DNA of 64,000 bases, from contig CAZOKZ010000006.1 in the NCBI GenBank assembly GCA_964580585.1, positions 45,492 through 109,491 of the forward strand, in the 5' to 3' direction. The translations under genes were made by a program, and so were the position numbers. The notes beneath the pieces were generated by a model that was not told the origin of the DNA, ran no database searches, and worked only from the letters and a program-made list of their open reading frames with translations. This document shows, in pieces, positions 3,793 through 60,504 of the stretch; the first letter of the stretch is position 1; each line of letters begins with the position of its first letter. This stretch comes from an uncultured Candidatus Sumerlaeota bacterium (lineage in GTDB: Bacteria > Sumerlaeota > Sumerlaeia > SLMS01 > JAHLLQ01).

Positions 3793-4711
3793 TCGATTGT
3801 TCTGTGGTTTGGTGTGGTTGCTTGTCTTGTAAAACGTAATGAACGATGAGTTTCTCGTAGGCGCTATCGGCTTTTTCGAGAGATTTTTGGTAACGGCGAA
3901 TCAGGAAGGCGCGCGCCTGCTTGCGCGTCAGTTGAGTCAGGCATCCGATAGTGATGAAAAACGCGGAGAGCACGGTCAGAACACTGTGGCGGTTGAAGTA
4001 ATTCACGAGTCCTTGAGGAAGGAAGGCGGCGCCGATTTCGAAGATCACCGTGAGAAAAATTCCGATCAACGTGAAGACAAAGACGGCAGTTATCATCCAA
4101 GGAATGAGGGAAAGAAATTGATCCATCGTGGTGGTAATGGTGTGGCGCAGCTTGGGGCCGAGTTCAATGGGTGTCAGCCATCGATCGATAGGAACCATCA
4201 CGAATTGTTGGCGAGCGGTTTCGATCCCGAGGATGAAGGCGAAAAAAAATACCTGCCAGACGAAGTAGGCGGTGGCGAGAATGAAAACCAGATGCATCAG
4301 GCTGAGAGTTCGATCGAAAAAAGACGCTGCCACGATCAATAGGTATGCAATGACCGCGAACCACTCCGATTGTTTCCACATCAAGCGTCCTTCGAGATAT
4401 AAAGTTTCAACGATGTCGCGTCCCGTGTTGGGAGTTAACCAGATGTCGGTGGCGGCCTGAAGAAGAATGCCTTTTTCAGAGTAAACGTCCGAAAGTCTGC
4501 GGGGCAGAAAAGGGGTCAAGTTGCGTTTGTCCCAGCGACCAACGCCTGGGGCTTTTGACGGGGCAAAAAATTTTCGTCCGTGAACTTTGCGACGGCGGTA
4601 GAAGGCCTGGAACAGGCAATTGGTTTTTTCGGCGTCAAGTGTTGGGTCGTTGCGTCGCATCCATTCGGAGAATGCAGGCGGAGTTTCAGTTTCGGACGAG
4701 GGTTTGACCAT
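3785..4711 (-). CDS. multi-pass membrane protein, paralog C
   Basis: Start taken at the internal ATG (MVKPSSETETPPAFSEWMRRNDPTLDAEKTNCLFQAF...GRDIVETLYLE...). Its stop overlaps the start of paralog B by 8 nt (ATGCCTGA). Confidence 0.55.
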   Translation of the reverse strand: MVKPSSETETPPAFSEWMRRNDPTLDAEKTNCLFQAFYRRRKVHGRKFFAPSKAPGVGRWDKRNLTPFLPRRLSDVYSEKGILLQAATDIWLTPNTGRDIVETLYLEGRLMWKQSEWFAVIAYLLIVAASFFDRTLSLMHLVFILATAYFVWQVFFFAFILGIETARQQFVMVPIDRWLTPIELGPKLRHTITTTMDQFLSLIPWMITAVFVFTLIGIFLTVIFEIGAAFLPQGLVNYFNRHSVLTVLSAFFITIGCLTQLTRKQARAFLIRRYQKSLEKADSAYEKLIVHYVLQDKQPHQTTEQSNA

Positions 4712-34588: not shown

Positions 34589-34739
34589 CGGGGGAAGGCT
34601 CCTTGGCAGGTGAGTGCGTCAGCACGCGCGGGAGTTTTGTAGAGCGGGCGACGGGACACAAGGGGAGAGCGGACCCAACTTCCCCATTGACGGGAGGCGC
34701 CTGCGCGGGTGTACCTCGTGTTCAGCAATGGTACATCGG

Positions 34740-35040
34740 GCGGCAGGCTTTGCGCCGCGCGATGTTCAAGAGGGAATCCGGTGAAAATCCGGAACTGCCC
34801 CGCAGCGGTAAGTGGAAACGACCGCCGTCATGAAGCACTGGTTCGATTTGAACTGGGAAGCGACGGCCAGTAGGCCAGGAACTCCTCTCGGTTCCCAATC
34901 TCGGCGTTGCGCATCGGTCTCGGGCTCGGTCACGTACTCAAAACGTACGCTCCCATCGCCTTCGCCTCGCGCGTCTTGATCTTGGAAACCTGAGAAGTTC
35001 CGAATATAATGTCCACAAGTCCGAAGACCTGCCATTGTTC
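34740..35040 (+). promoter_or_regulatory. cobalamin (AdoCbl) riboswitch
   Basis: AGGGAATCCGGTGAAAATCCGGAACTGCCCCGCAGCGGTAAGTGG...CACTGG...ACTGGGAAG... and 3' CCGAAGACCTGCC align closely with the E. coli btuB leader. Lies 5' of the plus-strand gene starting at 35102. Confidence 0.8.
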
Positions 35041-35101
35041 CGGGCGGCGTATGCCACCCGGCAACATTCGATCACTCCTTCGTGGGAAAGGGAAGATCGC
35101 C

Positions 35102-46502: not shown

Positions 46503-48917
46503 TTACTGCGCGTGAGCCTGCAAACGTTTGGTGGTATGATTGCGACGTGCCGGCACATGGGACTTGTTTGCACCGGGGGGCGTGGTCAAGGCTATCTGTA
46601 AAACTTCGTCCAGCGATTCCACTGCGATGAAGTCCAGTTTTACGCGAATTTCTTCGGCGATTTCCTCGATATCGTTCAGGTTTTCTTTTGGAATAATGAT
46701 CGTGCGAATCTTGCGGCGGTGGGCAGCGAGGGCTTTTTCTTTCAAACCACCGATTTTCAGCACGCGACCACGCAACGTGACCTCACCCGTCATCGCAAGG
46801 TCCTGACGTACAGCCACGCGCGAGAGTGCCGAGGTCAAACTCGTGGCGATGGTAATGCCTGCGCTGGGTCCGTCTTTAGGAATCGCGCCTTCGGGTACGT
46901 GAATGTGAATATCGATGTCAGAATAACAGTCGGGATCAATACCGAGTTCGATGGAGTGCGAGCGAATGTAGGAAAGCGCCGTCTTGGCGGATTCCTGCAT
47001 CACTTCGCCGAGCTTGCCCGTCAGCACCAGGTTGCCTTTGCCCTTCATGATCGTTGTTTCCACCGGCAACATTTCACCCCCGGTTTCCGTCCAGGCCAAA
47101 CCAGTCGTGATGCCGATCTCCGGTTTGCGTTCCAGCGCGCTGTCGTGGAATTTCTCCGGTCCGAGCAATTCGCGCAATTTTTCCGGCGAAATCGAATCGA
47201 TTTTCTGCTTCGGGTTTTCAACCACAAGGCACGCGATTTTGCGGCAGATTTGCGCCAGCGTTCTTTCCAGATTTCGCACGCCTGCTTCGCGCGTGTAGGC
47301 CGTGATGATTCGCATCATCGTAACTTTGGGGATTTTGACCTGATTGGATTTCAGACCATGTTGCTTTCGTTGGCGGGGGAGAAGGTGCCGCTTGGCAATG
47401 TGGTACTTTTCATCTTCCGTGTAGCCAGAAAGCGAAATGATTTCCATGCGATCCAGCAATGGATAAGGTATGCCTTCCATCGTATTCGCGGTCGTCAGGA
47501 ACATTACTTTGGACAGATCGTAATCGATTTCCAGATAGTGATCGTTGAATGTTTTATTCTGTTCCGGGTCGAGAACTTCGAGCATCGCGGAAGCCGGATC
47601 GCCACGGAAGTCCGAAGCCATTTTGTCGATTTCATCCAGTAAAAATACCGGGTTGACGACGTTGGCACGTTTCATGGATTGCACGATTTTTCCGGGCAAT
47701 GCGCCGACGTAAGTGCGACGATGACCGCGAATTTCAGCTTCATCGCGTACCCCGCCGAGAGAAATGCGTACGAATTCGCGCCCCATGCAATGGGCGATTG
47801 ATTTGCCGAGCGACGTTTTGCCCACACCGGGAGGCCCCACGAAACAAAGGATCGGTCCCTTGCCCTGGCCTGCCAGTTTTACCACCGCCAGATACTCGAT
47901 GATACGTTGTTTGATTTTTTCCAGCCCGTAATGATCCTTATCGAGTGTCTTGCGCGCTTCGGCCAAATCGATCAGGTCATCGGTTTTGTCCACCCACGGG
48001 ACTTCCGTCAGCCATTCCAGATACGTGCGAGTCACCGCGGCTTCCGGCGACATCGGGGCCATGCGCGCCAAACGCCCCAGTTCTTTTTCGGCTTTTTCGC
48101 GCGCATCCTCGGGCATTTTCGCCCCTTCAATTGCCAGTGCTAACTCCTGCAATTCGGGGTCGTCCTCGCCTCCGATGCCCAATTCGCGTTCGATGGCTTT
48201 CAATTGTTCATTCAAATAATATTCGCGTTGGCTGCGGCCAATCTGGTGTTTGACCTGATCGGCGATTTTCGATTCGAGTTCCAACAATTGCAATTCGGCT
48301 TCGAGCGATTGGTTGAGCAGAATAAATTTTTCTTCGAGCGAATTGGATTCGAGGATTTCCTGCTTTTCTTCGACTTTCATTGTGACATAATGCGTTACGG
48401 AATTCAGGAAAGCCTGAGCGTCTTTGGTGTTTTTGATGCTTGTAAACAGGTCGGGCGGGATTTTGTCCGACAGCAATGTATAGCGCTCGAACAATGACAT
48501 TGTACTGCGCATGTGGGCGGGAATGCTGCGGCTGTTGACGCCGGAAACCTGATTCAAGACGACGAACGATTGCAAATACCCATCGCGACGGGTGGTTTCA
48601 ATCGCACGAGCGGCATACGTGCCTTCGATGAGCACCTTGACCGAGCCGTCGGGCACACGCAGGACCTGGAGTATTTCCGCCACCGTGCCGACCGTATAGA
48701 GATTCGACGGATCGGGGTCCTCGATCTCCGCGTCTTTCTGGCAAACGAGGAACACGCGCTTGTCCTTGGCGAGCGCTTCTTCCAGCGTTTTGAGCGAAAT
48801 GTCTCGCATCACAAAAAGAGGCGTTATCGCACCGGGAAAAACCACCATTTCTCTCAGCGGCAGTACGGGCAGGTAATCGGACGCAAACTTATCGGTCACG
48901 GCATGTCTCCAGGCCAT
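46503..48917 (-). CDS. lon: ATP-dependent protease Lon
   Basis: LON N-domain ([14 protein letters not shown]), Walker [12 protein letters not shown], proteolytic Ser in [13 protein letters not shown]. Start taken at MAWRH. The ORF track extends to 49133. Confidence 0.9.
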
Positions 48918-49136
48918 GGAACACCGGGCATCGATCGCCCGGCCATGGGGAAAATCGCACGCGGCATGTCCCGTTGGGACCACCACGATCTGGAACCATG
49001 CCAGCACCTCCTCGCTGACACTGTCCAGTAAAAGATTCGGGGAAAAGAAGGAGAATTTGTGCTCGATGAGCTCAATTTCGATGGCCCGTCCGGTTCGGAG
49101 GATGTCTGAGTTACAACTCAAATACAAAGACATGAG

Positions 49137-49679
49137 GTGTTTGGCGTGATTCCGTTCGATATGTGTCTTGGGTTGGCCGTTTTCTTTGTTGTTTCCAATA
49201 TTGTGTTGATGGTGATGCGTTACAAAAAAGTACCTCCGAACAAAGTCATGGTTATTTCGGGCAAATTAATCCATCATCTTCCCACGCAAAATCTCGATCT
49301 GGAGCCGGGAGAAATGCGCGAATTGCCTGCTCCTCGCGGTTATCGAATTGTCCGAGGAAGCGGTGTCTTTGTCTGGCCGATATTGGAAACTGTCGGGATG
49401 CTGGAAGCCAATCCACTGGTAGTGAGCATTGATGATCGGCGTGACTACATGCCTCCGAGTATCACTGTCGCTTTAAACACAGAGGATGTTGAAGCAATTA
49501 ACCGTGCCGCCAGTCGAGTGACGGACACACCTTCCGATGAAATTGCCAGATTGGTTCAAGCAATGATTGCTCAGGTAATCGATGACATCGAACGCAATGT
49601 TTCCGAACCGGACCGATTCGAGGAATTTAGAAGCAGGATGGGAAGCAAACTCGATCAAATCGGGTACATTCTGATGTGA
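49137..49679 (+). CDS. short SPFH/flotillin-N-terminal-like protein
   Basis: N-terminal TM then YKKVPPNKVMVISGK...RIVRGSGVFVWPILETV resembles the start of flotillin/YqiK SPFH domains. Only 180 aa. Confidence 0.4.
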   Translation: MFGVIPFDMCLGLAVFFVVSNIVLMVMRYKKVPPNKVMVISGKLIHHLPTQNLDLEPGEMRELPAPRGYRIVRGSGVFVWPILETVGMLEANPLVVSIDDRRDYMPPSITVALNTEDVEAINRAASRVTDTPSDEIARLVQAMIAQVIDDIERNVSEPDRFEEFRSRMGSKLDQIGYILM

Positions 49680-49681
49680 GG

Positions 49682-52261
49682 TCAGTAAGACTCCCAATCC
49701 TCCACGCCCGCGTTTTCGGCGACACATTCGACGATCAGCACTCCACCTGTGTCGGCGATTTCATCACCGCCTTGAGTGACGGTGACAGAAATCGGATCGT
49801 CCCCACCACACGTACCTGAAATCTCCACCGTGTAACCCGCGCCTGGATCGAGTCCCGTTATCAGGTGCCGCGTGGCATCGCCCGGCGTCTCGTAGGTAAG
49901 TTCAACAAACGGTTCGTCCAGATTCACGGGAAAGAGCACCGCTGTATCGCCTGCGAATGCCCCGGCGAACGATGTTGTGCTGGAAGTCGTATCCACCGTC
50001 CCCGTGTTGTCGCGCGATTGGCCTGCGTCAGTGCCCTGCAACACGTGCAGGAACCGCGCCGACGCAGGATCGCCGGGCGCTTCTACCATCAGGCGGTGTC
50101 TTGTCCACTCGCCTTCAGCGCCTTCCTCTCCGTAATCGCTGATGGGCTCGGTTAGATCGAGGACCGGCGTACCCATTTCGGGCAGCAGTGTCGTCACGTA
50201 CAGATGTTGGCCTTTTGGTGTCGTACCGGTGGTCACGTTACCCGCAATCATCGTATCTCCTGGATCACCAGGCAATCCGAGCCAGAACCGTTTGGTATAA
50301 CCATCAGTTTGCGTTTCCGCGCGGTCATACACGAAGAGATGATCGGGTTTCAGCCACAGGATCGATCGGCTGGCATGGGTGACTTGCATGGCGAGCGGGT
50401 TGTAATTGTACTGACCTGTGGCGTCGCCGCACAGGTAGTCGAATTCCGGTGTCAAAGACCGCGCCACCAGCACGGGGTCGCCTGCCGGATTGCCGAGCAA
50501 AAACTGCGAACCGTTGGCCGAAGTTACCGTGCGGTTGTGTCCCGTCCCGGCATCGACGAAATCGTTTTCGATCGACAGCGTGTTATGCCATTCCGAGCAC
50601 GCGTTCTGGTAGGCGAACGCGTAACCGCTCCATTCCTTGGTTAGCCATTCGCCCTCGCGCCAGAACTCGAACATATTGGCATCGCCGAATTGATGGTCGA
50701 TGTTATTCCAACTCATTTTGTACGTGAACCAATTCGCGTCTTCGTTCCAACTCGTGCGCGAAAGCAATCGATTCAACCCCGTGCCGAAATGGGAAGTTGT
50801 CATCGTCGGACGTGGATCGACAGGTGCCGTTTCGTTTGGGTCCATTATCAGGAAATAGAAAATCGCGTGCGTGAAGTCCTCGTTCCAGCGAACGCGGCTT
50901 TCCAATTTCTCTTCGCCACCTTCCATCATGAATGTTTGTACATACCGTGTGGCATTCCATTCGTCCGTGTTGCCGTTTAGATAACTGTAAACGCCCAGCG
51001 GCCCCAGCGCATTGATCGTTTCAGCAAGCTCGTACCGATTCGCATCGCCAAAATACGCCGGTTGATACATCTCGCCGCGCCATTCCCAACCGGGGACGGT
51101 AAGTTTGCTCGGGCTGATAGAATGCAACAACCCGGGCAGAAAATCCTGATAAAAACCGCTGTTTTCCAGTTTTACTTGGGGCATGGGGACGGAGAACGCG
51201 TTCGGGTCGTCGTACCCCGACGTGTGCAAGGCCAACATCAGTTGCAACATGCGCCCGACATTGGAAGGGCCATAGCTGAAGCCCTCGGGCGAAAAACCTC
51301 CCTGGCAATAGGTTCGTAAAATGAAGTCTGTTTGAAATAACCATAGTCCAATGGTGTTTTCCAGATACCCGCGTACTCCAATGCCGCGTGGTCCGACAGG
51401 GTAAGGATCGTCGTCCGACGCATCGAGCGCGATCGACATCATTGCCATGTTGCGAATGTGTGCCGTTTGATAGTTGTTCACCGCGTACCTTATCGAGTAA
51501 TGAGTCAAGTACACAGGGTCGTTGTAGCTCGTGGTGAAAGATCCGCCTCCGACACGCGAAGCGGAAATGTTCTGCTCCATCCAAAGCAGGAACACATGAC
51601 GGATTTCCTCAAGTTCTGCGGTTGTGAACTCATCGTAAATCCAATCCACCACCAACGGAAAACAATGCCCATGCCAGCGCGAACGGTCGCCCGCTGCGAA
51701 TGTTGTGCGGCGCCACGCGTTTCCCGAATACCATGAGGAAACCTGCGCCGGATCATTCCAATCCGTCGGCGCGGCGGGCGCGGGATCGGGCGGGCCCTGA
51801 ATCGCCGCATCCATCACATGCATGATTAATGTCTTGGCGCGCGAGGCGTAGTCCTCGTGCTCTGGGGTGCCTTCGTCGTACAACAGCGACATGAAGGCGA
51901 ACAGCATTGCGTAATCTTCGCACGGATATGCCACAAAACCATTGGTGCCATCATCGCGATAGGGGAGCGATGGCAATCCGGCGAATCCCGCTCCCAAGTA
52001 CGGAATATTGTTTGTCGCAATCGGCGTATCCATTGTCGTTTTGGCGGTTTCAGCGGCCTGAAGCAAACCGTTCTGGAACACGGGGTTCGCACTCACCGCC
52101 CAGGATTTCAAACGCGGCAAATCTTCCTGGCGCACAAACAAACGCGGATGCGTTGTGACGGGCGCGGATTCGGCAAGATTGGAAATAACGACAAAGATAA
52201 GTACAACGACAACCGCCACGGTCCGCTCGAAAGCGGTCGGACGCGTCAATGGGGAGAACAT
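49682..52261 (-). CDS. large secreted protein, possibly a polysaccharide lyase (heparinase II/III-like) fold
   Basis: Signal peptide. 859 aa. Aromatic-rich. Family assignment is a guess from composition and motifs. Confidence 0.45.
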   Translation of the reverse strand: MFSPLTRPTAFERTVAVVVVLIFVVISNLAESAPVTTHPRLFVRQEDLPRLKSWAVSANPVFQNGLLQAAETAKTTMDTPIATNNIPYLGAGFAGLPSLPYRDDGTNGFVAYPCEDYAMLFAFMSLLYDEGTPEHEDYASRAKTLIMHVMDAAIQGPPDPAPAAPTDWNDPAQVSSWYSGNAWRRTTFAAGDRSRWHGHCFPLVVDWIYDEFTTAELEEIRHVFLLWMEQNISASRVGGGSFTTSYNDPVYLTHYSIRYAVNNYQTAHIRNMAMMSIALDASDDDPYPVGPRGIGVRGYLENTIGLWLFQTDFILRTYCQGGFSPEGFSYGPSNVGRMLQLMLALHTSGYDDPNAFSVPMPQVKLENSGFYQDFLPGLLHSISPSKLTVPGWEWRGEMYQPAYFGDANRYELAETINALGPLGVYSYLNGNTDEWNATRYVQTFMMEGGEEKLESRVRWNEDFTHAIFYFLIMDPNETAPVDPRPTMTTSHFGTGLNRLLSRTSWNEDANWFTYKMSWNNIDHQFGDANMFEFWREGEWLTKEWSGYAFAYQNACSEWHNTLSIENDFVDAGTGHNRTVTSANGSQFLLGNPAGDPVLVARSLTPEFDYLCGDATGQYNYNPLAMQVTHASRSILWLKPDHLFVYDRAETQTDGYTKRFWLGLPGDPGDTMIAGNVTTGTTPKGQHLYVTTLLPEMGTPVLDLTEPISDYGEEGAEGEWTRHRLMVEAPGDPASARFLHVLQGTDAGQSRDNTGTVDTTSSTTSFAGAFAGDTAVLFPVNLDEPFVELTYETPGDATRHLITGLDPGAGYTVEISGTCGGDDPISVTVTQGGDEIADTGGVLIVECVAENAGVEDWESY

Positions 52262-52639
52262 GTCGAATTACCTCGAAAGAGGCGACCAGTATCGTGTGGC
52301 AGGTATGGCGAACAATTGCCGGGACGAAAAAACGTCTCGCGTATTGGACAATTGTTTTGGGGGGCGGGATACCTCGGAAGGTTTTATCGGATGGCCACAG
52401 TTCGATAATCTTAACTGCTACCGAACGCGATGATCGATGAACTGGAGTGGAAAGTAAAGTGGTATTGTTTATCAGGAAATAAACTTTATTTCCGGGTTCT
52501 CGGAATTGTATCGGAAATTTGTTCCGACCGGTGTTCAGCCAATTCGTGAACGCTATCCAGGGAATCGCCCGCTTTCCCTTGTAATGCGCCGTGCCCGGGC
52601 GTACCGTGAATTATCGTAAAATAAAGGGAGTGAAATTAT

Positions 52640-54637
52640 ATGAATTTGTTCGCTAAAAAGCGGATGCGTACGACTACATCCGGTGTTCAGACACGCCGGT
52701 TAGTGGTGGCGTTGATTCATCCATCTAACTATGATCATCAAAAACGTGGAGCAATGGGTTCGTTTGTTCAGACATACCGGCTGGGAGTGATTCCGTCCAA
52801 TACCTTGCGCGTGATGCAGAGCTTGACCCTCGATGCTTTTTCTCAAGAACCCTTCGACAACGTAAGGACCGAAGTCCACATTTTCGAGGATAGCATCCGT
52901 GGTCAGCAACGTGCGTTTCGTCGCTTGCTCAGGAAATTTCCTCAACGCGATGCACAGTTAGTCGTCGGACTTGTCGCTGTTCAAAGTAACCAATTCCCCC
53001 GCGCGTTGGATTTAATCGATTATGCCAAGCGTCACGGAGCGATCTCCGTCATCGGAGGCCCTCATGTCACCGCCAGTATCAACACGGATTTTTACGGCAT
53101 CAGCGCCATTGACCCCTTGCGTGCCGGGGTTTCATGCGCCAACACGATGCCGCCGGAAATCCAACACTTAATCGACGACCCCGACGTCGTGGTGTTTCAT
53201 GGCGACGCCGATAACAACGGCGCCTGGCATGGGGTGCTCAGCGATATTTTCGCGGGTCGCCCGAAACCCTATTATGAAGCCGGACTGGCGAACGAATTAA
53301 CGGCACCCGGTTGTCTTTACGATAGCGCATATCTCGACGATTACGTTACTCCCGTTGCGGCGGTGGATACCGAGCGTGGCTGCCCGTTCAAGTGCAAATT
53401 CTGCGCCGCAATCCAGGCCCACGGACGCACGGTGCGATGCCGACCCTCGCCCGGGATTGTCGATTGGATTCGTCGGCAATGCGAGTCATACGGTAAGCCG
53501 ATCACCGTGTTGTTCGCGTCGGATAATCTGGCGCGTAATCCGCACTGGCGTCAATTGCTCAAGGGCCTTCAGGACCTTCTTGCGCAAGGATACGACTTCA
53601 CCATTTGGGCCGAAGCCGATGTGCGGTGCAATAGTGGCCCGAATCGTGGGTTTCTCGAAGAATACGCCAAGGCCGGTGGCCAGGGGCTTTTTCTCGGCAT
53701 CGAATCCATGAATCCCGATAACATTGTCGAGGCGGGCAAAAAACAAAACGCTGTCGATGAGTTGCCTGCGTTTTTCGCCGAGTGTCGCCGCCATGGCATT
53801 GCTCCCGAAGGTGGTTACATCATCGGTTTCGAACACGATACTCCACAATCCATCGCGCGCGATGTGACAACGTTGGCAGAAGCCGGTCTGGCACGCGCAT
53901 GGTTTTTTGTAAAAACACTTTTGCCGGGCAGCGAAGACTGGGCCGAAGCCCGTCGAGACGGCAAAACCGTCAGCGACGACTTGAACGATTTCGATTCCAC
54001 CGTTGTGGGTTACGAACACGAGCACATGACGTGCGAAGAATGGCAACATGCCTACGACACGGCGATTCGCACGTTTTATAGCTCACGCAGCATGGTGAGC
54101 ATTCTTTCCACTTACCAGGATGCGTTGCAACGTTGGCGCCTGATCAAGGGATTCATGTGGTGCAGGTGGGCGTATCTTACCGAAAAATCGCATCCGATGA
54201 TTGCGGGATTTTATCGCTACCGTCCCTTCGGCGAACGTCGCCCGCGACAAAAATCGCTCTCTTTCGGACGTTATATGCTCGGTGAAACATGGCGACATCT
54301 ACGCTATGTCGGGCACTTGTTCCGCGAGTTCTACATCTTCCAACAGGTCATTTTGGAAACCGAATGCCGCCTGCGCTTCGACGACATGCGCGCACGCTTG
54401 GAAAGCGAACCTAAAAATCTATACGATTGGTTCGAACGCACGTTCCGAGCACCCATGCGCCGCGCTTGGCTGAACGGTTTTTGGGTGAAATACGGCTCGC
54501 AAAAATGGCGATTGCTGAATCCATTCAGCAGTTTTCGCTGGCACATTAATATGGTGCCACACGCGATGACCGAAGTCGTTTACACCATGCGCTTTTTACG
54601 CATTTTCATCCGAGGTGTTTTTTTCAGTCCCACGTAA
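52640..54637 (+). CDS. B12-binding radical SAM protein with large C-terminal extension
   Basis: B12-binding Rossmann (ISVIGGPHVTAS). Radical SAM CxxxCxxC (CPFKCKFC). ~250-aa C-terminal domain. Confidence 0.75.
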   Translation: MNLFAKKRMRTTTSGVQTRRLVVALIHPSNYDHQKRGAMGSFVQTYRLGVIPSNTLRVMQSLTLDAFSQEPFDNVRTEVHIFEDSIRGQQRAFRRLLRKFPQRDAQLVVGLVAVQSNQFPRALDLIDYAKRHGAISVIGGPHVTASINTDFYGISAIDPLRAGVSCANTMPPEIQHLIDDPDVVVFHGDADNNGAWHGVLSDIFAGRPKPYYEAGLANELTAPGCLYDSAYLDDYVTPVAAVDTERGCPFKCKFCAAIQAHGRTVRCRPSPGIVDWIRRQCESYGKPITVLFASDNLARNPHWRQLLKGLQDLLAQGYDFTIWAEADVRCNSGPNRGFLEEYAKAGGQGLFLGIESMNPDNIVEAGKKQNAVDELPAFFAECRRHGIAPEGGYIIGFEHDTPQSIARDVTTLAEAGLARAWFFVKTLLPGSEDWAEARRDGKTVSDDLNDFDSTVVGYEHEHMTCEEWQHAYDTAIRTFYSSRSMVSILSTYQDALQRWRLIKGFMWCRWAYLTEKSHPMIAGFYRYRPFGERRPRQKSLSFGRYMLGETWRHLRYVGHLFREFYIFQQVILETECRLRFDDMRARLESEPKNLYDWFERTFRAPMRRAWLNGFWVKYGSQKWRLLNPFSSFRWHINMVPHAMTEVVYTMRFLRIFIRGVFFSPT

Positions 54638-54685
54638 AATCATACTGAGGGACGGAGCACCTCGATTCCGTCCCTCTTTCCATTT

Positions 54686-55888
54686 TTACTGTGCCTGCAT
54701 AAAGTAATAAACGATTAGCCCAATCAGGCCAGATCCCGCAATAACCGCGAGCGCAATCTTCACCCAACTCCACGGACGCTCGCCTTGGACTTCCCCCGTG
54801 CGAGCATTTACTAAAACGCGGTATGGCTTGTTATCGTACCGATAAACCGCCAGCCAGATGGGGAGCAGCAAATATTTGAACGTCACCCCATCGATTTGGG
54901 TTTGCACAGAACTGATGCGTTGAACGTCGCCACCGATTTGTTGGCAAATGAACTCGCGAATCTGTTTGTCCATACGTACCTTGGCCAAATCGAAACCATC
55001 TTGTGCGCTAACCTGATAACGTTCGGTTTGAAAGCCGCTTAAGTAGGCTGGTTGATAGGGCACTGCGCCTTTCAAATCCCATGGTTCGAGTTCTTCCACC
55101 TGTTTATCCGGTAACGATTTCGATGCGCAAACCAGCACGTCGTCGAACCAGTGATCCACACGTCCACTCACGGACGTCCACCGAGTGCGTTGCTCTGTGC
55201 GGCGATTTTTTCCGCTTCCAACGGTCACATAATAATGATCGCCGCGTTGGCCCGTGTAAAACGACCACGTCATCGCGTCGTATGTCCAATATGGAACATA
55301 CAAGCCATTCACGCGATCCAGGCGATCCATATCCTTAAACGCATTTGGTGCAAACCAACGCGAATTTACCCATTTGCGAAACTCTGTTTGCGCACCTTGC
55401 TTATCGACCATGAACGGTAATAATCCGCCTGGCGCCATCATCGGTTTGGCAGCCGTTACGGGGTTGTCCAAGTGCGTGCCACAGAATGGACACGCGTCTG
55501 TTGCCTTTTCCGCCGTGATGAGCACATTTGCCCCGCATCCATCGCATCGGCGTTCACCTTCCGTTCCCGCCAGAACTTCCTCCGCGACGCTGCCATGCTC
55601 AAAATAGGTCTTGAAACACAGCTCGTTTACTTGATCGGCGGATTGAGGAACGGATTGTTCGTGCCCACAGTACTGGCATTTTAATACTGCCAACGTTGGA
55701 TCGTAATTCAGCGCCGCGCCGCATTGCCCGCACGGAAACTCTCGTCCGTCGCGCACTGTTGTTTGCGGTTCCAGTTTTGGTTTTGGCGGTTCGGGTGCTT
55801 TTGGTTTCGGAGAGAACGGGAAATTCCCGTCGCTCTTCTTCAACCGCGAACCACCCGGCGGCATCACCCGTGGGTATTCTTCAGACAT
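54686..55888 (-). CDS. double zinc-ribbon membrane protein (downstream of an SPFH gene)
   Basis: Two CxxC..CxxC ribbons (CGQCGAAL..CQYCGHE; CDGCGANV..CPFCGTH). C-terminal TM (IALAVIAGSGLIGLIVYYF). Confidence 0.5.
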   Translation of the reverse strand: MSEEYPRVMPPGGSRLKKSDGNFPFSPKPKAPEPPKPKLEPQTTVRDGREFPCGQCGAALNYDPTLAVLKCQYCGHEQSVPQSADQVNELCFKTYFEHGSVAEEVLAGTEGERRCDGCGANVLITAEKATDACPFCGTHLDNPVTAAKPMMAPGGLLPFMVDKQGAQTEFRKWVNSRWFAPNAFKDMDRLDRVNGLYVPYWTYDAMTWSFYTGQRGDHYYVTVGSGKNRRTEQRTRWTSVSGRVDHWFDDVLVCASKSLPDKQVEELEPWDLKGAVPYQPAYLSGFQTERYQVSAQDGFDLAKVRMDKQIREFICQQIGGDVQRISSVQTQIDGVTFKYLLLPIWLAVYRYDNKPYRVLVNARTGEVQGERPWSWVKIALAVIAGSGLIGLIVYYFMQAQ

Positions 55889-56011
55889 GATTCGTTGTCC
55901 CGCTCATTGCTCGCGTTCATTACGCAAAACAGTATCTTGGTAATCGAAACCACAAAGAGCGTGTTTTTTCGTGTTCCTTCGTGCCTTCGTAGTTTGTCTT
56001 TTTTCTTCCTG

Positions 56012-57127
56012 TTACAGTGGGGGAAGCGGCGGCGGCATACTCGCAAACAAACTGCTCAATTCCGCCACATCACCGGCTTTTATCCACGCCGACATCCCTT
56101 GTTTCCACACCAGCGTCTCGCGCGAGATCGCTCCGCTGGCGACCTGTTGCTGAAGCGCCGCCATGTCGAACGGTCCGGCTTGCTGGCCATTGATGCCCGC
56201 ATAATATTGAACGGCGGTCGGCAGGGGAGGCGGTCCACCCGGCGCGGGTGCCGAAGGTTGAGACGCGGTGTTCATCGAGTGCATCATCTGCTGCGCCATG
56301 CCAAGGCCGACACCCAGCCCCGCGCCCATCCCCGCGCCGCCATCGGCGGGATTTTCCGCCGCTTTTTCCAGCGCTTCGGCGGCTTGGAACTTCATGTATT
56401 GGTCCAGATTTCCGACAACGCCCATCGACGTGCGCTTATCGAGCGCGCGCTCGACTTCGTTGGGCAGCGAAATATTTTCGATCAGGAATATCGGCAGCGA
56501 CAGACCCATCTCGGCGAATTCGTCGGTCAGCTTCTTTTGCGAAAAAGCGCTCAACTCGTCCAGGTTGGCCGCCATGTCCAACACCGGAATGCCGGAACTG
56601 GCTACCGCGTCGGAAAAACGCGTAACAATCATGCCGCGCAGCTGGCCCGAAATTTCCATCGTCGTGAACGACGGGTCCGTCGAGATCAACTGGCGCAGAA
56701 GCGCCGTCGGATTCGTTACCTGAAGGGCGTACGTTCCGAACGCTCGCACCCGCACCATGCCGAATTCCTTGTCGCGCATCGTGATCGGGTTTGATGTGCC
56801 CCATTTCAGGTCCGTGAACCGACGTGTGGAAATGAAGTAAACCTCGCACTTGAACGGCGAATCGAAACCGTACTTCCAGCCCATGATGGTGGATAAAATG
56901 GGCATATTCTTGGTTTCGAGCGAATACATTCCCGGCGCATAAATATCCGCGATCTTGCCCATATTGACCAAAATTGCCTGTTGGCCCTCGCGGACGATCA
57001 GCTTCGCGCCATTTTTGATTTCGTTATCGCGACGCGGAAAACGCCACGCCATTTCGTCGCTTTCGGGCGGTTGATTCCACTCGATAATATCGACAAGTTC
57101 ATTTTTGAGAAAGTCCATCAGACCCAT
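56012..57127 (-). CDS. SPFH/band-7 domain protein with C-terminal GYF-like (DUF4339) domain
   Basis: Band-7/SPFH core. Gly/Pro linker. C-terminal ...GPFDMAALQQQVASGAISRETLVWKQGMSAWIKAGDV. Confidence 0.6.
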   Translation of the reverse strand: MGLMDFLKNELVDIIEWNQPPESDEMAWRFPRRDNEIKNGAKLIVREGQQAILVNMGKIADIYAPGMYSLETKNMPILSTIMGWKYGFDSPFKCEVYFISTRRFTDLKWGTSNPITMRDKEFGMVRVRAFGTYALQVTNPTALLRQLISTDPSFTTMEISGQLRGMIVTRFSDAVASSGIPVLDMAANLDELSAFSQKKLTDEFAEMGLSLPIFLIENISLPNEVERALDKRTSMGVVGNLDQYMKFQAAEALEKAAENPADGGAGMGAGLGVGLGMAQQMMHSMNTASQPSAPAPGGPPPLPTAVQYYAGINGQQAGPFDMAALQQQVASGAISRETLVWKQGMSAWIKAGDVAELSSLFASMPPPLPPL

Positions 57128-57480
57128 TTTTTCTGGTGCTCCCGTTGAAAGTTACGCCCCCTCGATTGTCCGCCCGATTGCGTTCACAGCTTATACGATG
57201 CCAGACGCCAGATATTCAACCCCTGCTTAGAATTGACCATAGGACGGGCATTGGCAGGGGGAAAGCGGAAACCGGGGGATCGACCGTCAAGACGCAAAGC
57301 AGTGTAGAAAATGAATTCTCGCGCAGAGACGCAGAGGCGCGGAGATCAAACAATAAAAGTGAAAGAAAACGTGAGGATTCCGATTACTTTATGGGTTTCG
57401 GATTAAATTTACCTCTGCGACTCCGCGTCTCTGCGCGAGTTATTGAAACTCCGTGAGTCTGTGGATTGCTTTTGAAACGC

Positions 57481-57512
57481 AAAAAAGCCCCTTTCCACCG
57501 AGGGAAAGAGGC
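57481..57512 (-). terminator. rho-independent terminator (3' of ffs)
   Basis: On the minus strand: GCCUCUUUCCC-UCGGU-GGAAAGGGGC followed by UUUUUU. Confidence 0.55.
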
Positions 57513-57530
57513 TGCAATTTGCTTGTTGGA

Positions 57531-57661
57531 GAGACCGAGGGAGCGGACAACCGGACCGTTCGCGCACCCGGAACGGAAAACTTATGGCTGCTTCCTTCCG
57601 GATCTGACCAGGTTCGTCGCCGTCCGTCGCGCGGAGCCCGATTGTCCGCTCCGCCGGTCTC
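57531..57661 (-). ncRNA. ffs: signal recognition particle RNA (4.5S RNA)
   Basis: Minus-strand CCUGGUCAGAUCCGGAAGGAAGCAGCCAUAAG matches the domain IV motif of E. coli 4.5S (CCAGGUCAGGUCCGGAAGGAAGCAGCCAAGG). Ends pair as a long hairpin (GGAGCGGACAA/UUGUCCGCUCC). Confidence 0.8.
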
Positions 57662-57679
57662 GCCGAAAAATCGAACCGA

Positions 57680-57910
57680 TTAGATCGATTCTTCTTCCAA
57701 TTGACGCAAAACCTTGCGCGGAGCGGCTTTATCCACCGAATTGCTCTTCAACGCCTTGGTCGAAACATACGCGCGGCGAACCGTGCCGGTTTCGTCCACG
57801 ATTTTGACTTTCTGGATATTCGCGCCAAACACGCGTTTGGTTCTATTATTGGCGTGACTGACGTTATTGCCCGTCGTCCGCTTTTTGCCGGTAACTTCGC
57901 ACTTAGCCAT
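57680..57910 (-). CDS. rpmB: 50S ribosomal protein L28
   Basis: MAKCEVTGKKRTTGNNVSHANNRTKRVFGANIQKVKIVDETGTVRRAYVSTKALKS. The ORF track extends upstream to 58129. The true start is the internal ATG. Confidence 0.85.
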   Translation of the reverse strand: MAKCEVTGKKRTTGNNVSHANNRTKRVFGANIQKVKIVDETGTVRRAYVSTKALKSNSVDKAAPRKVLRQLEEESI

Positions 57911-58046
57911 GACTGAACGCACCATGAACACAGATTTGCCCGCATAGCGGGGAAGGGAAGAGTCCGCACCCCGACCGCTCAGGTCAAAGGAAAAATGCGC
58001 CGCTTTCGAGTTTTTTGCGCTTAATTGCCCGAGAAATCCTCTGTCT

Positions 58047-58532
58047 TCAAGGTTCGACGAGTAAAAAATCTGAAGGAGGCTCGTGCTCGGAAGGTAAAGG
58101 CAGACCTGATTTCTCGCAACTGATCTCAAACTTGGTTAGAAGAATCTTATAGTCGCACAGATAAAAATCCACTCTTCCAGGAAGGAGTGTCAAATCGATG
58201 AACCCAACCTCCCCGTATGGCATCTGCACATCGTTTCGGTCGAAGATTGTCTCGAAATCGTCGATTTCGCAGTCGGGAGAAACCTCCAATTTCAGGGTAT
58301 CGATAACTCCCTCTTCCTTTGTGGCGACGGTCAACTCGATCCATTTTGGGTCGATACGTTTTACGGTTACCACGAACGGACCGGGGCCATACGTGACATG
58401 TCTCGTGAACAAAACGCCTGCGAACAAAACGCCTGCGGTGAATACAATCACTAAAAAAAGGACTACTACGAAGCGGTGTGAGCGTTTCGGTTGTGGGTGG
58501 GGTTGATTTTCTGATTGGGCGTCGTGTTCCAT
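58047..58532 (-). CDS. single-TM protein with C-terminal beta domain (possibly NfeD-like partner of the SPFH protein)
   Basis: TM (FVVVLFLVIVFTAGVLFAGVLF) then ~110-aa soluble domain. Contains a 15-bp tandem duplication (gaacaaaacgcctgc x2). Confidence 0.45.
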   Translation of the reverse strand: MEHDAQSENQPHPQPKRSHRFVVVLFLVIVFTAGVLFAGVLFTRHVTYGPGPFVVTVKRIDPKWIELTVATKEEGVIDTLKLEVSPDCEIDDFETIFDRNDVQMPYGEVGFIDLTLLPGRVDFYLCDYKILLTKFEISCEKSGLPLPSEHEPPSDFLLVEP

Positions 58533-58671
58533 GGGTGCCTGCCCTTAATGAAACGGAACGAATGATCAAATCGTGTACATGAATATTCTTAATCCTGCAC
58601 ATCCTGTCCATCCCAGTTAAAAATAAAAACACCGGAAGAACACGCGGGCGTCCCCGTGGCTCCTCCGGCGG

Positions 58672-59781
58672 TCAAACAAGCTTGGTCACGTGCTCGGCGA
58701 GGCCCTTCTCGCCCAGGATGACCGTCAGGTTGGTCTTCGGCGCGATCTTCTCCAGCGTTTCCAACTCGCGCAGGCGCAGCAACGCCGGGTTGGCGTCGAG
58801 CAGCTTGGCCGAGTTGGCCTGGTGACGCATGGCCGCCGTTTCCTCGCGACGCGTGATCAACGCGGCTTCCGCGCTCTTGCGAGCCTCGGTTACCTTGTTG
58901 AGCAGTTCACGCATATCGCCCGGCAGAATCACGTCGCGGATACCGAAGCCGGTGACTTCGACGCCGATGCCCGACCCGCGCACCGCCAGGGCAGCGTGCA
59001 GTTCGTTCGTCAGCGCGTCTTTATCGGCCAGCACGGCGTCCAGATCGCGGGTGCCAATCGCGGCGCGTAGAGCAAGCTGCGCCTCGCGGTAGAGCGCCGC
59101 GCCGCAATCGGCAACTTCGCTCAGGGCTACGACCGGATCGACGATACGGTACTTGACCAGCGCGTTCAAACGTAGTGTTACGCGGTCGGAAGTCATGATA
59201 TCCTGGCCAGCGACATCAAGCGACTGCTCGCGGCGGTCGGCCAGACGGAACGTCACGCGGCCCGCTGCTTTCCAGAACGCGTACACGCCCGGCGCGAACG
59301 AATCGACGAATCGGCCGTCCACAAAGAGCAAACCGGTCTGGTGATTTTCAACCACGAACAAATCGAGATGTTCGCGTGCGACCGGCGAGTTGACGATCGT
59401 ACGGAAATCCGCGTGTTCGAACTGTGCCGTCGCGATATTGATCTTTTCGACGCGCACATCGTTCATGATCTTCCAGAGGGCTGCCATGCCCGGCGAAAGA
59501 ATCGCAGTGAATCGTCCATCGATCCACACGAGCGCGCGCTCGTTGTCCTTCACGTCAACGATTTCGGCCAAATCGCCGAACGCTCCGCTGCGGATAATCG
59601 AATCGAGTTCGCGATGCACGACAACCGGACGGTTGACCGGTATCACATCGATACGAAGACGATTAACCGGGTCGAAAAACTTATGCACGCCCGGTTCGAG
59701 AATTTCTACGAAGTCGCGATTGCGGAACAAAAACCCGCGTTCGGACTTGGTAATGGTGGTACGAGTGAAGAGAAACGTCAT
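58672..59781 (-). CDS. SPFH/band-7 (stomatin/HflC-like) protein
   Basis: SD AAAGGAGGG plus ATG (MTFLFTR...). C-terminal SPFH core with a coiled-coil tail. Terminator hairpin plus T-run downstream (~58600-58655). Confidence 0.7.
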   Translation of the reverse strand: MTFLFTRTTITKSERGFLFRNRDFVEILEPGVHKFFDPVNRLRIDVIPVNRPVVVHRELDSIIRSGAFGDLAEIVDVKDNERALVWIDGRFTAILSPGMAALWKIMNDVRVEKINIATAQFEHADFRTIVNSPVAREHLDLFVVENHQTGLLFVDGRFVDSFAPGVYAFWKAAGRVTFRLADRREQSLDVAGQDIMTSDRVTLRLNALVKYRIVDPVVALSEVADCGAALYREAQLALRAAIGTRDLDAVLADKDALTNELHAALAVRGSGIGVEVTGFGIRDVILPGDMRELLNKVTEARKSAEAALITRREETAAMRHQANSAKLLDANPALLRLRELETLEKIAPKTNLTVILGEKGLAEHVTKLV

Positions 59782-60233
59782 CAGGCTTCCCTCCTTTCCA
59801 AAAGAAAATGATGTGGAGAAGTTCCAAAGCTTCTCCCTCCCTACCTTCAAAAAAACGAAAACCGTTTGGTTTCCGAAAACAGCCAATTATTGAGAGAAAA
59901 CGAACCGCCTCGCCACGCTTGGCGTGCGGAACGCCGGTTGAGACACAAGGTGTCCACTGCCTGGCCGCGCGCGTTGGCGGCGCCTTCACCGGGGGGACGG
60001 AGCACAACCCACTGTTCCATCTCCATCTCCAACTCTGTCCCCCGATGGGGCGGCGCCACCAAAACATTGCTGCCGGGTAGCGGTTATCTCGTGCCGGTAT
60101 CCCCGGCGTTTCATGGCCGCCGCGCGCTGCGTCTCCGTCCCCGCGCCCGAAAGCGGGGGAGCGAATCGGCAGGCGAATGGCGGTTCGTCTTCTCAAGCGA
60201 GATGCAAAGAAAAGCGTTGCTCACCTTTGCTTG

Positions 60234-60306
60234 TCGAATAGACCGGAATCGAACCGGCTACCTACAGGTCCATGCCTGTCGCTCTGACCAATTGAGCTTC
60301 TATTCC
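60234..60306 (-). tRNA. tRNA-like sequence, probably a pseudogene (aberrant anticodon arm)
   Basis: Reverse complement GGAATAGAAGCTCAATTGGTCAGAGCGACAGGCATGGACCTGTAGGTAGCCGGTTCGATTCCGGTCTATTCGA. D- and T-arms are good. Anticodon stem ACAGG/CCTGT encloses only 6 nt (CATGGA). G1:G72 mismatch. No CCA. Confidence 0.4.
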
Positions 60307-60427: not shown

Positions 60428-60504
60428 TGGCGCTCCAGAAGGGATTTGAACCCTCATCTTTCGCCTCGACAGGGCGACGCTCTCGCCAATTAAGCTACCG
60501 GAGC
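60428..60504 (-). tRNA. tRNA-Asp (anticodon GTC), CCA encoded
   Basis: Reverse complement GCTCCGGTAGCTTAATTGGCGAGAGCGTCGCCCTGTCGAGGCGAAAGATGAGGGTTCAAATCCCTTCTGGAGCGCCA. GTC in the anticodon loop. Confidence 0.85.

Follow-up and report, generated by a model that had tools for sequence, protein, structure and literature searches.

Gene content of the region

Within the 64,000-nucleotide stretch analysed here (the window), three SPFH (band-7) genes lie inside 11 kb (Table 1). The first-pass annotation had listed these genes, together with ffs and rpmB, and our Pfam, Rfam and NCBIfam/profile searches recovered every one of them; all three SPFH genes are real. They fall into three different subfamilies and occupy at least two transcription units, as the strong intrinsic-terminator-like hairpin 3' of ffs splits a unit comprising H, G, rpmB and ffs from the unit formed by E and D. 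Between the SPFH genes lie unrelated genes for an 859-aa protein and a B12 radical-SAM enzyme, as well as rpmB and ffs, the latter two being ordinary neighbours. A gene for Lon protease adjoins A. Two elements just upstream of H, a tRNA-like element and a structured RNA, were absent from the first-pass annotation.

Table 1. Features of the region, with positions counted from the first nucleotide of the window.
Feature	Position	Strand	Evidence or description
A, 180-aa mini-flotillin	49137-49679	+	N-terminal TM helix and SPFH domain only
D, YdjG/SamG-like tail-anchored membrane protein	54686-55888	-	homology, zinc ribbons, TM
E, YdjI/SamI-like soluble SPFH protein	56012-57127	-	Band_7_1 (PF13421) E 5e-97; GYF_2 E 1.6e-20
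Intrinsic-terminator-like hairpin, strong	57486-57513	-	11-bp stem + T6, 3' of ffs
ffs (small SRP RNA)	57546-57643	-	Rfam RF00169, 65.6 bits
rpmB (ribosomal protein L28)	57680-57910	-	Pfam Ribosomal_L28 E 5e-19; start from sequence
G, lineage-specific orphan ORF	58047-58532	-	one N-terminal TM segment
H, soluble stomatin-type SPFH ('slipin family') protein	58672-59781	-	Band_7 E 3e-24
Terminator-like hairpin + U7	59856-59875	-	between structured RNA and H ribosome-binding site
Conserved structured RNA, long hairpin	59909-60131	-	covariance model R2; absent from Rfam 15
tRNA-like element, b7a-tRNA type	60233-60306	-	Rfam tRNA 47.2 bits, position
tRNA-Asp(GTC), ordinary	60428-60504	-	ARAGORN; Rfam 67.3 bits; upstream of tRNA-like element

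The heading of the first-pass annotation also implied one functional concentration of SPFH genes, an idea that comparison with related loci did not support. Not one of 86 other loci with an H homologue (~650 kb) holds a homologue of A, D or E, and the SPFH concentration is therefore not conserved. Likewise, Pfam gene tables revealed no second Band_7 gene in the five loci with D and E homologues (L001-L005), and tblastn found no A homologue in any related locus retrieved. A single functional island, such as a membrane-microdomain or stress super-cluster, would fit the presence of three SPFH genes in 11 kb and the position of Lon protease beside A. However, the genes represent different subfamilies with unrelated genes interspersed, a strong terminator divides them into at least two transcription units, and the surveys of related loci did not find the linkage; we regard such an island as very improbable and already largely refuted. 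Probably, the region contains three mutually independent SPFH systems that are neighbours by chance: E-D, which resembles YdjI-YdjG; H, which is accompanied by two RNAs; and the mini-flotillin A. Most of the region is of known kinds, and the structured RNA upstream of H is its interesting remainder.

A membrane-anchored mini-flotillin

Protein A has a TM segment at residues 1-29, and its N-terminus matches NCBIfam FloT (E 9e-5); a Pfam search alone misses the SPFH domain. When a profile of the A family was compared with the PDB, it matched the SPFH domains of flotillin-1/flotillin-2 with an E value of 1.2e-24 (profile residues 31-179, chain residues 5-154). The initial description of a 180-aa flotillin-N-terminal-like protein was thus accurate. 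The sequence stops at residue 180 and gave no match to the Flot coiled-coil family (PF15975). Its 115 relatives among 1.84 billion representative proteins are mostly 150-220 aa long. Collectively, A is a membrane-anchored, SPFH-only mini-flotillin.

E and D are homologues of YdjI and YdjG

Besides its SPFH domain, E carries a C-terminal GYF_2 domain at about residues 305-360, set between PPPLP stretches, and no TM segment was predicted. D starts with a disordered, Pro-rich N-tail (RVMPPGGSR), followed by two zinc ribbons of the CxxC...CxxC kind (C53/56/71/74 and C115/118/133/136; strictly or almost strictly conserved across 29 homologues), two modules of a helix plus a long beta-hairpin, and a single C-terminal TM helix at residues 374-399. 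These features agree with the first-pass description of an SPFH + DUF4339/GYF protein followed by a double zinc-ribbon membrane protein. The pair had been called unrecognised there, which no longer holds: BLASTP aligned D with YdjG (E 5e-39, 352 aa of D (51-397) on YdjG 5-336 of 341) and E with YdjI (E 7e-39 over 295 aa), and D was the sole match in the window to a YdjG query in tblastn. Both homologies run end to end, at an identity of only 25-27%. Moreover, the SPFH+GYF architecture with neighbouring TM-protein genes was already listed in 2007 (PMC2034487).

YdjI and YdjG are encoded in the pspA-ydjGHI (samGHI) operon, which acts in envelope stress, and membrane recruitment of YdjI and PspA was shown experimentally to require YdjG and YdjH in B. 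subtilis (PMC8581546). D has its nearest relatives in Sumerlaeota and Planctomycetota, and the family as a whole has > 6000 members that are labelled only 'hypothetical' or 'RNA polymerase subunit RPC12/zinc-ribbon'. The E-D pair is kept in five of six related loci, where a Band_7_1+GYF_2 gene precedes the D homologue in the same orientation. E and D homologues are side by side on one strand in L001, L003, L004 and L005, and are parted in L002 by an IS/toxin-antitoxin insertion (transposase + MazE/PemK). Flanking genes are unrelated from locus to locus among L001-L005, and the neighbours are of the housekeeping type, e.g. aspartyl-tRNA synthetase, CTP synthase and citrate synthase. Conservation of a partner beside the SPFH gene is therefore seen for E-D but not for H-G, G being an orphan.

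As judged from these sequence comparisons, E-D is a two-gene operon and a variant of the known Bacillus membrane-stress module that recruits PspA. Its link to PspA in this window is by homology only, because tblastn found neither a PspA nor a YdjH/TPM homologue in the 64 kb; L001-L005 also lack a YdjH/TPM homologue. The earlier proposal of a stress or defence module splits in two. Membrane stress agrees with the YdjI/YdjG homology; defence has no signature in PADLOC, which matched none of A, E, G and H and gave only zinc-ribbon noise for D (E ≥ 0.003). That E-D is an anti-phage defence or abortive-infection module instead of a housekeeping membrane-stress system appears improbable to us. Some conflict systems do contain SPFH and zinc-ribbon proteins, and the L002 pair is interrupted by a transposase and MazE/PemK, but neither D nor E has a meaningful PADLOC match, the flanks are housekeeping genes, conservation across the very large family is even, and the characterised homologues work in envelope stress (PMC8581546).

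The membrane-stress module suggests how D and E may cooperate. We propose that D sits in the cytoplasmic membrane by its C-terminal tail while its zinc ribbons and body face the cytoplasm, and that it would recruit E, a soluble SPFH protein, to this membrane. Bacterial GYF domains have been proposed to bind proline-rich peptides (PMC2034487). The N-tail of D, otherwise variable among homologues, keeps a PPG/PPP motif; planctomycete tails are proline-rich, often without a strict PPG. YdjG of Bacillus has no N-tail and YdjI of Bacillus no GYF domain, and P0034, the sole tail-less D homologue examined, has no SPFH-GYF neighbour. In the Sumerlaeota/Planctomycetota variant, the GYF domain of E could thus bind the PPG/proline-rich N-tail of D, a contact that would stand in for the TPM-domain adaptor YdjH, and E oligomerised on the membrane would serve as a stress scaffold. 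Alternatively, the proline-rich flanks of E itself could be the GYF ligand instead of the D tail. The GYF/PPG co-variation provides a concrete predicted contact, which would account for a module that functions in the absence of YdjH, and the large D family can now be named YdjG/SamG-like anchors of a soluble SPFH protein.

H is a soluble stomatin-type protein without an NfeD partner

The first-pass assignment of H as an HflC/stomatin-like SPFH protein was confirmed by its Band_7 match. A structural model predicts three N-terminal five-stranded beta modules, the SPFH domain and a long C-terminal helix, and the structural neighbours of this model are stomatin, HflK/C, flotillin and the major vault protein (MVP). 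H has no hydrophobic or TM segment, its N-terminus consisting of beta-repeats. Its nearest relatives are again from Sumerlaeota and Planctomycetota, and no H homologues were found in phage genomes.

According to bioRxiv 10.1101/312249, a Band-7 family was linked to RNA repair by Burroughs and Aravind in 2016; the preprint names the association b7a-tRNA and reports expression of the RNA and its binding by Band-7 as not yet validated experimentally. Some H homologues (45-55% identity) adjoin RtcR/RtcA/RtcB/Hen1 or RlaP/KptA/Macro genes. By sequence relationship, H is a member of this 'Band-7 / b7a-tRNA' family, tied to RNA repair by comparative genomics. A role of H in RNA repair is indirect, because neither the ORF list nor Pfam revealed an RtcA/RtcB/RlaP-type gene next to H in the window and RtcB occurs in only 4 of 44 related H loci. 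In Anabaena, a single repressor governs a 26-tRNA operon together with a slipin gene (alr0740, a candidate H-type gene), RtcB and HNH endonucleases, and translational stress induces them (PMC10272220). A related island that combines slipin, nucleotidyltransferase and zeta-toxin-like genes is present, as the yjbD-lysC island, in approximately one-quarter of complete E. coli genomes, which offers a tractable organism for the protein side.

The ORF downstream of H, G, has the single TM segment noted before; its supposed resemblance to a short NfeD was not borne out. G gave no Pfam hit at E ≤ 10, NfeD (PF01957) included, and nothing in NCBIfam, and among 5.8 billion proteins it matched itself only, with no homologue outside its own organism; we rejected G as an NfeD protein on these grounds. 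G occurs only on identical short contigs. Its coding score prefers its own frame (0.05 versus -0.5 and -0.43), and its GC content is 0.48 compared with 0.60 for H. None of the 86 H loci has a G-like gene, and no protein family other than the Rtc genes recurs downstream of H homologues. To read H and G as a stomatin and a shortened NfeD, paired in the manner of QmcA-YbbJ or PH1511-PH1510, is hardly credible: G lacks both an NfeD hit and homologues, H lacks a TM anchor, no examined H homologue is followed by a G-like or NfeD gene, and a weak terminator-like hairpin parts H from G.

Two RNAs are encoded upstream of H

The putative conserved partners of H are RNAs: two of them lie immediately upstream of its gene and in the same orientation. 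The more distal one, 453 nt upstream of H, looks like a tRNA; its 'anticodon' loop (CAUGGA) is 6 nt long, it carries A8 and the mismatch G1xG72, it lacks CCA, and ARAGORN did not call it. A same-strand tRNA or tRNA-like gene precedes the H homologue in 57 of 60 loci, 45 of them detected by ARAGORN and 12 of the remaining 15 by our model R1. On the ARAGORN-negative upstream elements of other loci R1 scored 63-80 bits, and on the element of the window, a divergent member, 54.2 bits. We also tried R1 as a separator of b7a-tRNAs from real tRNAs in the window and rejected it, as a genuine tRNA-Thr scored 70 bits and the element 54. Since R1 favours the genuine tRNA-Thr, the assignment of the element rests on its position and defects, not on its score. 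The upstream elements of H loci have odd anticodons on a very conserved body, and many loci carry whole tRNA arrays upstream, with up to 41 genes. Of the two putative partners of H, this one is a tRNA look-alike whose anticodon loop is defective.

The second RNA forms a long hairpin whose internal loops are conserved (GGAUACCGG ... CUCAA ... GCGUGGCG). Neither blastn nor nhmmer matched the spacer of the window to the other loci; the motif was found via conserved blocks among those loci and then captured in a covariance model. Model R2, built from eight loci other than the window, has a single match in the window (30 bits, E 5e-5; a divergent member). Its best 53 matches over 692 kb, searched on both strands, are all on the gene strand just upstream of an H homologue. 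A first-round model, whose count is a lower bound, placed a hairpin RNA of about 150-220 nt ahead of the H gene in about 54 of 72 loci; across the family the length runs to about 115-220 nt. In the loci of the E. coli and Burkholderia homologues, R2 gave no convincing match. Searches of Rfam 15 returned nothing relevant at E ≤ 10 for the hairpin RNA of the window or of locus L029.

Several measures support a conserved fold. All 45 spacers tested were more stable than their shuffled versions (median z -3.4), and the spacer of the window reached a folding z of -6.15. In a plain MAFFT alignment of eight sequences, RNAalifold detected compensatory changes in 14 of 61 pairs. Covariation was found at 33 of 35 pairs, and 92.8% of cells were paired compared with 32-48% in slid controls; the covariation counts were taken from an alignment that had itself been fitted to the model.

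Separate partner RNA or leader of the H mRNA

One explanation of the hairpin treats it as a leader that acts in cis on the H mRNA and not as a separate partner RNA of the protein, i.e. a riboswitch-like element or a protein- or tRNA-sensing attenuator that would control read-through of the terminator-like hairpin at 59875-59856. We consider this a plausible reading, though short of probable. The motif ends a median of 91 nt ahead of the start codon and is invariably on the coding strand, the terminator-like hairpin with its U7 lies between motif and ribosome-binding site in the window, T-runs occur in the motif-gene gap of 29 of 55 loci, and the conserved internal loops look like sites that bind a ligand or a protein. 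However, such T-runs are limited to about half of the loci, the gap extends to about 380-700 nt in several of them, and in L016 the motif (4454-4621) has tRNA genes on both sides, two tRNAs lying between motif and gene, an arrangement that suits an RNA released by tRNA processing.

In the reading that we favour, H would oligomerise into a soluble cage or ring, which we infer by analogy with SPFH proteins and the major vault protein; the cage may bind both RNAs as a scaffold or sensor, and the assembly could serve the response to tRNA damage or translational stress. A bolder version, possible if still doubtful, makes the hairpin and the tRNA look-alike the cognate RNAs of a soluble, vault-like stomatin cage. 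The hairpin would then represent an undescribed, widespread RNA class, and the whole a bacterial 'SPFH ribonucleoprotein' that senses or shelters damaged tRNA in translational stress.

The Band-7/b7a-tRNA association, a prediction since 2016, is nearly universal for the H slipin family (57 of 60 loci). It is accompanied by a second RNA, which covaries strongly and lies outside all Rfam models. If the hairpin RNA is indeed a partner of H, a bacterial SPFH assembly would have its first RNA-binding role. Such a partnership would tie in with the tRNA-array/RtcB translational-stress regulon of Anabaena, and an H ribonucleoprotein would be analogous to the Ro/Y RNA and vault/vtRNA particles.

Comparison with known systems

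Flotillins (FloT/FloA and flotillin-1/2) and A are alike in their N-terminal membrane segment and SPFH domain. In flotillins, the coiled-coil 'Flot' region builds the cage, whereas A, with its 180 aa, has no such region. The stomatin-NfeD operons (E. coli QmcA-YbbJ, Pyrococcus PH1511-PH1510) differ from H, which lacks both the membrane anchor and the NfeD partner and has three extra N-terminal beta modules.

With respect to SamGHI (B. subtilis PspA-YdjG-YdjH-YdjI), D is homologous to YdjG in its ribbons, body and C-terminal TM helix, and E is homologous to YdjI, likewise a soluble Band_7_1 SPFH protein; here too the two genes share one operon. The expected logic, a membrane protein recruiting a cytosolic SPFH scaffold, would be alike. 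In contrast to the Bacillus order pspA-ydjG-ydjH(TPM)-ydjI, however, the E-D operon is reversed, with the SPFH gene first, and lacks pspA and the TPM-domain gene ydjH. Where YdjI ends in a zinc ribbon E carries the GYF_2 domain, and D has gained the disordered proline-rich N-tail relative to YdjG.

H recalls the b7a-tRNA module (Burroughs & Aravind, 2016; bioRxiv 10.1101/312249). As in that module, H homologues lie beside RtcR-RtcA-RtcB-Hen1 or RlaP/KptA, and a same-strand tRNA look-alike is found upstream, in our survey at 57 of 60 loci and in the window. In the window, as in most loci, no RNA ligase adjoins H, and many H loci are preceded by tRNA arrays, the longest with 41 genes. The preprint's summary does not include the covarying hairpin RNA that lies between tRNA-like element and gene.

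The same preprint proposes that Ro60-Y RNA and Band-7/b7a-tRNA are functionally analogous. Ro60 (Rsr) with its Y RNA (YrlA), encoded in rsr-yrlBA-rtcBA operons, shares with H the combination of a non-enzymatic scaffold, a tRNA-mimicking RNA and a long stem near RNA-repair genes. The folds differ, however, as Ro60 is a TROVE/HEAT ring and H an SPFH protein. Rfam gave no YrlA match to the H-linked RNAs of the window and L029, whose tRNA-like part and hairpin are consecutive, not nested as in YrlA. As for the major vault protein, the model of H predicts the same succession of repeated five-stranded beta modules, SPFH-like shoulder and long helix, and both proteins are soluble and associated with small structured RNAs.

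Three SPFH genes of separate kinds

The first-pass annotation had described a concentration of three SPFH genes within 11 kb, interleaved with ffs and rpmB. All three genes are present, two of them (E and H) plainly recognized by Pfam, and both ffs and rpmB were confirmed between them. The concentration is nevertheless not meaningful, and a functional SPFH cluster is unsupported: none of 86 other loci carrying an H homologue held a relative of A, of the zinc-ribbon membrane protein D or of E, and no second SPFH gene occurred in the loci carrying D/E relatives. A, E and H belong to different SPFH subfamilies, with unrelated genes and a strong terminator in between.

Features around the SPFH genes (window coordinates)
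Feature	Position	Strand	Match or remark
tRNA-Asp	60504-60428	minus	
tRNA-like element	60306-60233	minus	
Structured RNA	60131-59909	minus	R2 (hairpin-core model) match
Hairpin + U7	59875-59856	minus	
H, SPFH protein	59781-58672	minus	Pfam Band_7, E 3e-24
G, small single-TM ORF	58532-58047	minus	
rpmB	57910-57680	minus	
ffs	57643-57546	minus	
Strong terminator	57513-57486	minus	
E, SPFH + GYF	57127-56012	minus	Pfam Band_7_1, E 5e-97; GYF_2, E 1.6e-20
D, zinc-ribbon membrane protein	55888-54686	minus	
Bidirectional terminator	after D		end of minus-strand series
B12-binding radical-SAM gene	52640-54637		left of D
859-aa ORF	49682-52261	minus	left of D
A, SPFH protein	49137-49679	plus	left of D
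lon, as listed	46503-49133	minus	left of D

Pfam detects no SPFH domain in A, the 180-aa protein described earlier as flotillin-N-terminal-like. Its N-terminal 90 residues match FloT, an exhaustive HMMER search returned 115 relatives (mostly 150-220 aa, some of them true flotillins), and a profile of its small family matched the SPFH domains of flotillin-1 and flotillin-2 across the profile's whole length (E 1e-24). On these three grounds the earlier description holds, and A is a mini-flotillin made up of an N-terminal TM helix and an SPFH domain alone. The 859-aa ORF, convergent with A across a gap of 2 bp, has an N-terminal signal- or TM-like segment, no Pfam domain and only a faint match to the heparin-lyase (HepB) N-terminus. 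The listed lon ORF starts 4 bp from A; because the conserved Lon N-terminus begins ~90 codons inside it, the true start is probably an internal Met (MAWRHAV...), which would give an intergenic region of ~220 bp. The B12-binding radical-SAM gene also lies in between the SPFH genes, and a cobalamin riboswitch occurs at 34713-35050 on the plus strand (Rfam, 85.7 bits).

The small ORF G had been likened to NfeD and paired with H. This likeness was rejected: G matched no family at any threshold and had no homologue among 5.8 billion proteins, except identical copies from the same organism. Likewise, no NfeD or G-like gene was present in the neighbourhoods of H relatives, leaving an H-G NfeD pair unsupported. 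The G frame looks coding, its composition is atypical, and G is an orphan ORF.

E and D resemble the YdjG/YdjI module

D combines two four-cysteine ribbons with a single C-terminal TM helix. Its family is very large (6202 matches among 8000 candidates scored) and annotated, where at all, as 'RPC12/zinc-ribbon'; the nearest relatives are from Sumerlaeota and Planctomycetota. A same-strand Band_7_1+GYF_2 gene lay upstream of the D relative in five of six cases, i.e. in all five neighbourhoods inspected (L001-L005), while the sixth relative, which has no N-terminal tail, had no such neighbour. The two genes were 4-170 bp apart in four of the five loci, and the flanking genes differed each time. 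In L002 (2973-6001), the remaining locus, the SPFH-GYF and zinc-ribbon genes are both intact but stand 3 kb apart, with paired transposase fragments and a MazE/PemK toxin-antitoxin pair inserted in the gap.

We retrieved the Bacillus subtilis pspA-ydjGHI locus via a published ydjG primer. D aligned with YdjG from the first ribbon through the TM helix (E 5e-39), and E with YdjI across the SPFH domain plus a Gly/Met-rich linker (E 7e-39). The pair that had seemed of an unrecognized kind is thus real and conserved, but not of unknown kind: judged by this homology, it is a member of the YdjG/YdjI-type modules in a new variant. B. subtilis YdjI, a cytosolic SPFH protein, depends on YdjG and YdjH for its arrival at the membrane and in turn recruits PspA (PMC8581546; PMC9239133; bioRxiv 10.64898/2026.02.06.704340).

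Compared with the Bacillus locus, the E-D gene order is reversed, and TPM-domain YdjH and pspA are absent from the whole 64-kb window. The terminal zinc ribbon of YdjI gives way in E to GYF_2, a domain that YdjI lacks, and D carries a disordered tail of 50 residues, rich in proline and bearing a conserved PPG/PPP motif (in the window, RVMPPGGSR), whereas Bacillus YdjG is tail-less. Balaji and Aravind proposed proline-rich peptides as ligands of bacterial GYF domains, and had already catalogued the SPFH+GYF architecture together with neighbouring genes for TM proteins (PMC2034487). Because Bacillus has neither tail nor GYF, because the tail-less D relative has no SPFH-GYF neighbour, and in view of that proposal, we infer that binding of E's GYF domain to the D tail may stand in for the YdjH bridge. 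Within E residues 285-371, proline-rich stretches also border GYF_2 on either side (GGPPPLPTA ahead of it, MPPPLPPL at the C-terminus); as possible self-ligands they would act in autoinhibition or oligomerisation and rival the D tail.

H relatives follow tRNA-like elements

More than 5700 relatives equal H in length and are named 'slipin family protein'. H has no hydrophobic segment; its N-terminus is built of repeats of ~65 residues, two preceding the SPFH domain and a third forming that domain's own beginning, with as many as four or five in relatives. Its structural neighbours were human stomatin (16.6), prohibitin (15.6), HflK/C (15), QmcA (14.6) and flotillin (14.4).

Directly upstream of H relatives, on the same strand, lie tRNA genes. 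Among 60 metagenomic loci with sufficient sequence upstream, ARAGORN called a tRNA within 1.5 kb in 45; of the 15 left, 12 gave strong matches (63-80 bits) to a covariance model built from the nearest elements. The nearest element, typically 230-590 nt from the start codon, has a near-invariant body (TAGCTCA..GG.TAGAGCA....GGTTCGA) and arbitrary or impossible 'anticodons' (AAT, ATT, ATG, AAG, AGT, TTA, and loops of 5, 6 or 8 nt). That of the window scored 47 bits with the Rfam tRNA model and was ARAGORN-negative; its loop is 6 nt long, position 8 is an A, two Gs clash atop the acceptor stem and CCA is lacking. [quoted passage not shown] The H locus is a Band-7/b7a-tRNA module, a known kind.

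Many H-relative loci carry tRNA arrays of up to 41 genes. At four (L015 397-4515, from Adhaeretor mobilis; L032; L059; L026), an array of 24-41 tRNA genes directly precedes the H-family gene and terminates in an aberrant tRNA-like element. In seven loci, HNH-endonuclease-like ORFs (~221 aa) lie near the arrays, at 1.2-3 kb upstream of the H gene, matching HNH genes that share their regulation with the Anabaena trn operon (PMC10272220). Upstream of a Sumerlaeota slipin gene (L014 4386-4529) we found two overlapping odd calls, 'tRNA-His(ATG)' and 'tRNA-Stop(TTA)', the latter with a suppressor-like anticodon. RNA-repair operons form the context of only 4 of 44 metagenomic loci; L016-L018 share the order RtcR, slipin gene, RtcA, zf_Tbcl, RtcB, DUF5677, Hen1, and the A. 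mobilis relative lies with RlaP, KptA, Macro and NUDIX genes.

A covarying hairpin RNA precedes H homologues

The spacer from the tRNA-like element to H (450 nt) folds far better than shuffles (z -6.15). All 45 spacers tested did so to varying degree (median z -3.4), and for their longest unbranched hairpin the median was 45 pairs, versus 27 for shuffles. By blastn and nhmmer the window spacer showed no sequence similarity to the others. Many of these share two conserved blocks around a variable hairpin tip, and eight aligned with MAFFT/RNAalifold gave a long hairpin with compensatory changes in 14 of 61 pairs. A covariance model of the hairpin core (R2; 147 positions, 35 pairs) was then searched over 692 kb on both strands. 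The best 53 matches all lay on the coding strand just upstream of an H homologue; other phyla were represented among them, as was the window, where the match was the only one in 64 kb (30 bits, E 5e-5). Of 72 loci with 400 nt of sequence upstream, ~54 had the motif; as R2 is a first-round model, this is a minimum. In a 41-sequence alignment, itself fitted to the model, 33 of 35 pairs showed double changes, and 92.8% of cells pair versus 32-48% with partner columns slid. No Rfam 15 family matched, even at E<=10.

The hairpin RNA may be a leader of the H mRNA rather than a separate RNA, a reading that we consider somewhat less likely than not. The motif is followed by hairpin+U7 in the window and by T-runs in about half of the loci; such terminator-type ends would fit an attenuator, as expected of a leader, just as well as the end of a small RNA. 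At L016 (4230-4934), the motif (4454-4621) lies between two pairs of tRNA genes, the first two calls overlapping by 5 nt; tRNAs on both sides favour an RNA released by tRNA processing.

An E. coli accessory island between yjbD and lysC (L099 6004-7928; L101 1525-4941), found in about a quarter of complete genomes (1425 of 5426), holds genes for three proteins: a slipin family member with 32% identity to H across 96% of its length, one with a nucleotidyltransferase domain and one of the zeta-toxin family. Its 530-nt unannotated upstream region contains a T-arm-like GGGUUCGAUUCCC, with no ARAGORN tRNA, no R2 match and a z of only -1.0.

Proposed role of H and comparison with known systems

To our knowledge, every structurally known SPFH protein forms rings or cages. 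Because H has MVP-like repeats and no membrane anchor, because the two RNAs are its only conserved neighbours, and because its relatives sit in tRNA-repair contexts, the most economical reading would be a soluble SPFH assembly that binds the tRNA mimic and the hairpin RNA, and that may act as scaffold or sensor in tRNA damage or translational stress. In its full ribonucleoprotein version, with H and both RNAs, we consider this rather unlikely, with a probability close to that of the leader reading. In Anabaena, a single repressor controls a slipin gene that may be of the H type, RtcB, HNH endonucleases and a 26-tRNA operon, and translation inhibitors induce all of them (PMC10272220).

Collectively, known kinds largely explain the three SPFH genes and their partners: a variant of the YdjG/YdjI-type module, a Band-7/b7a-tRNA module, a mini-flotillin and an orphan ORF. 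What goes beyond the literature consulted is the near-universal tRNA-like partner, the tRNA arrays and, above all, the covarying hairpin RNA.
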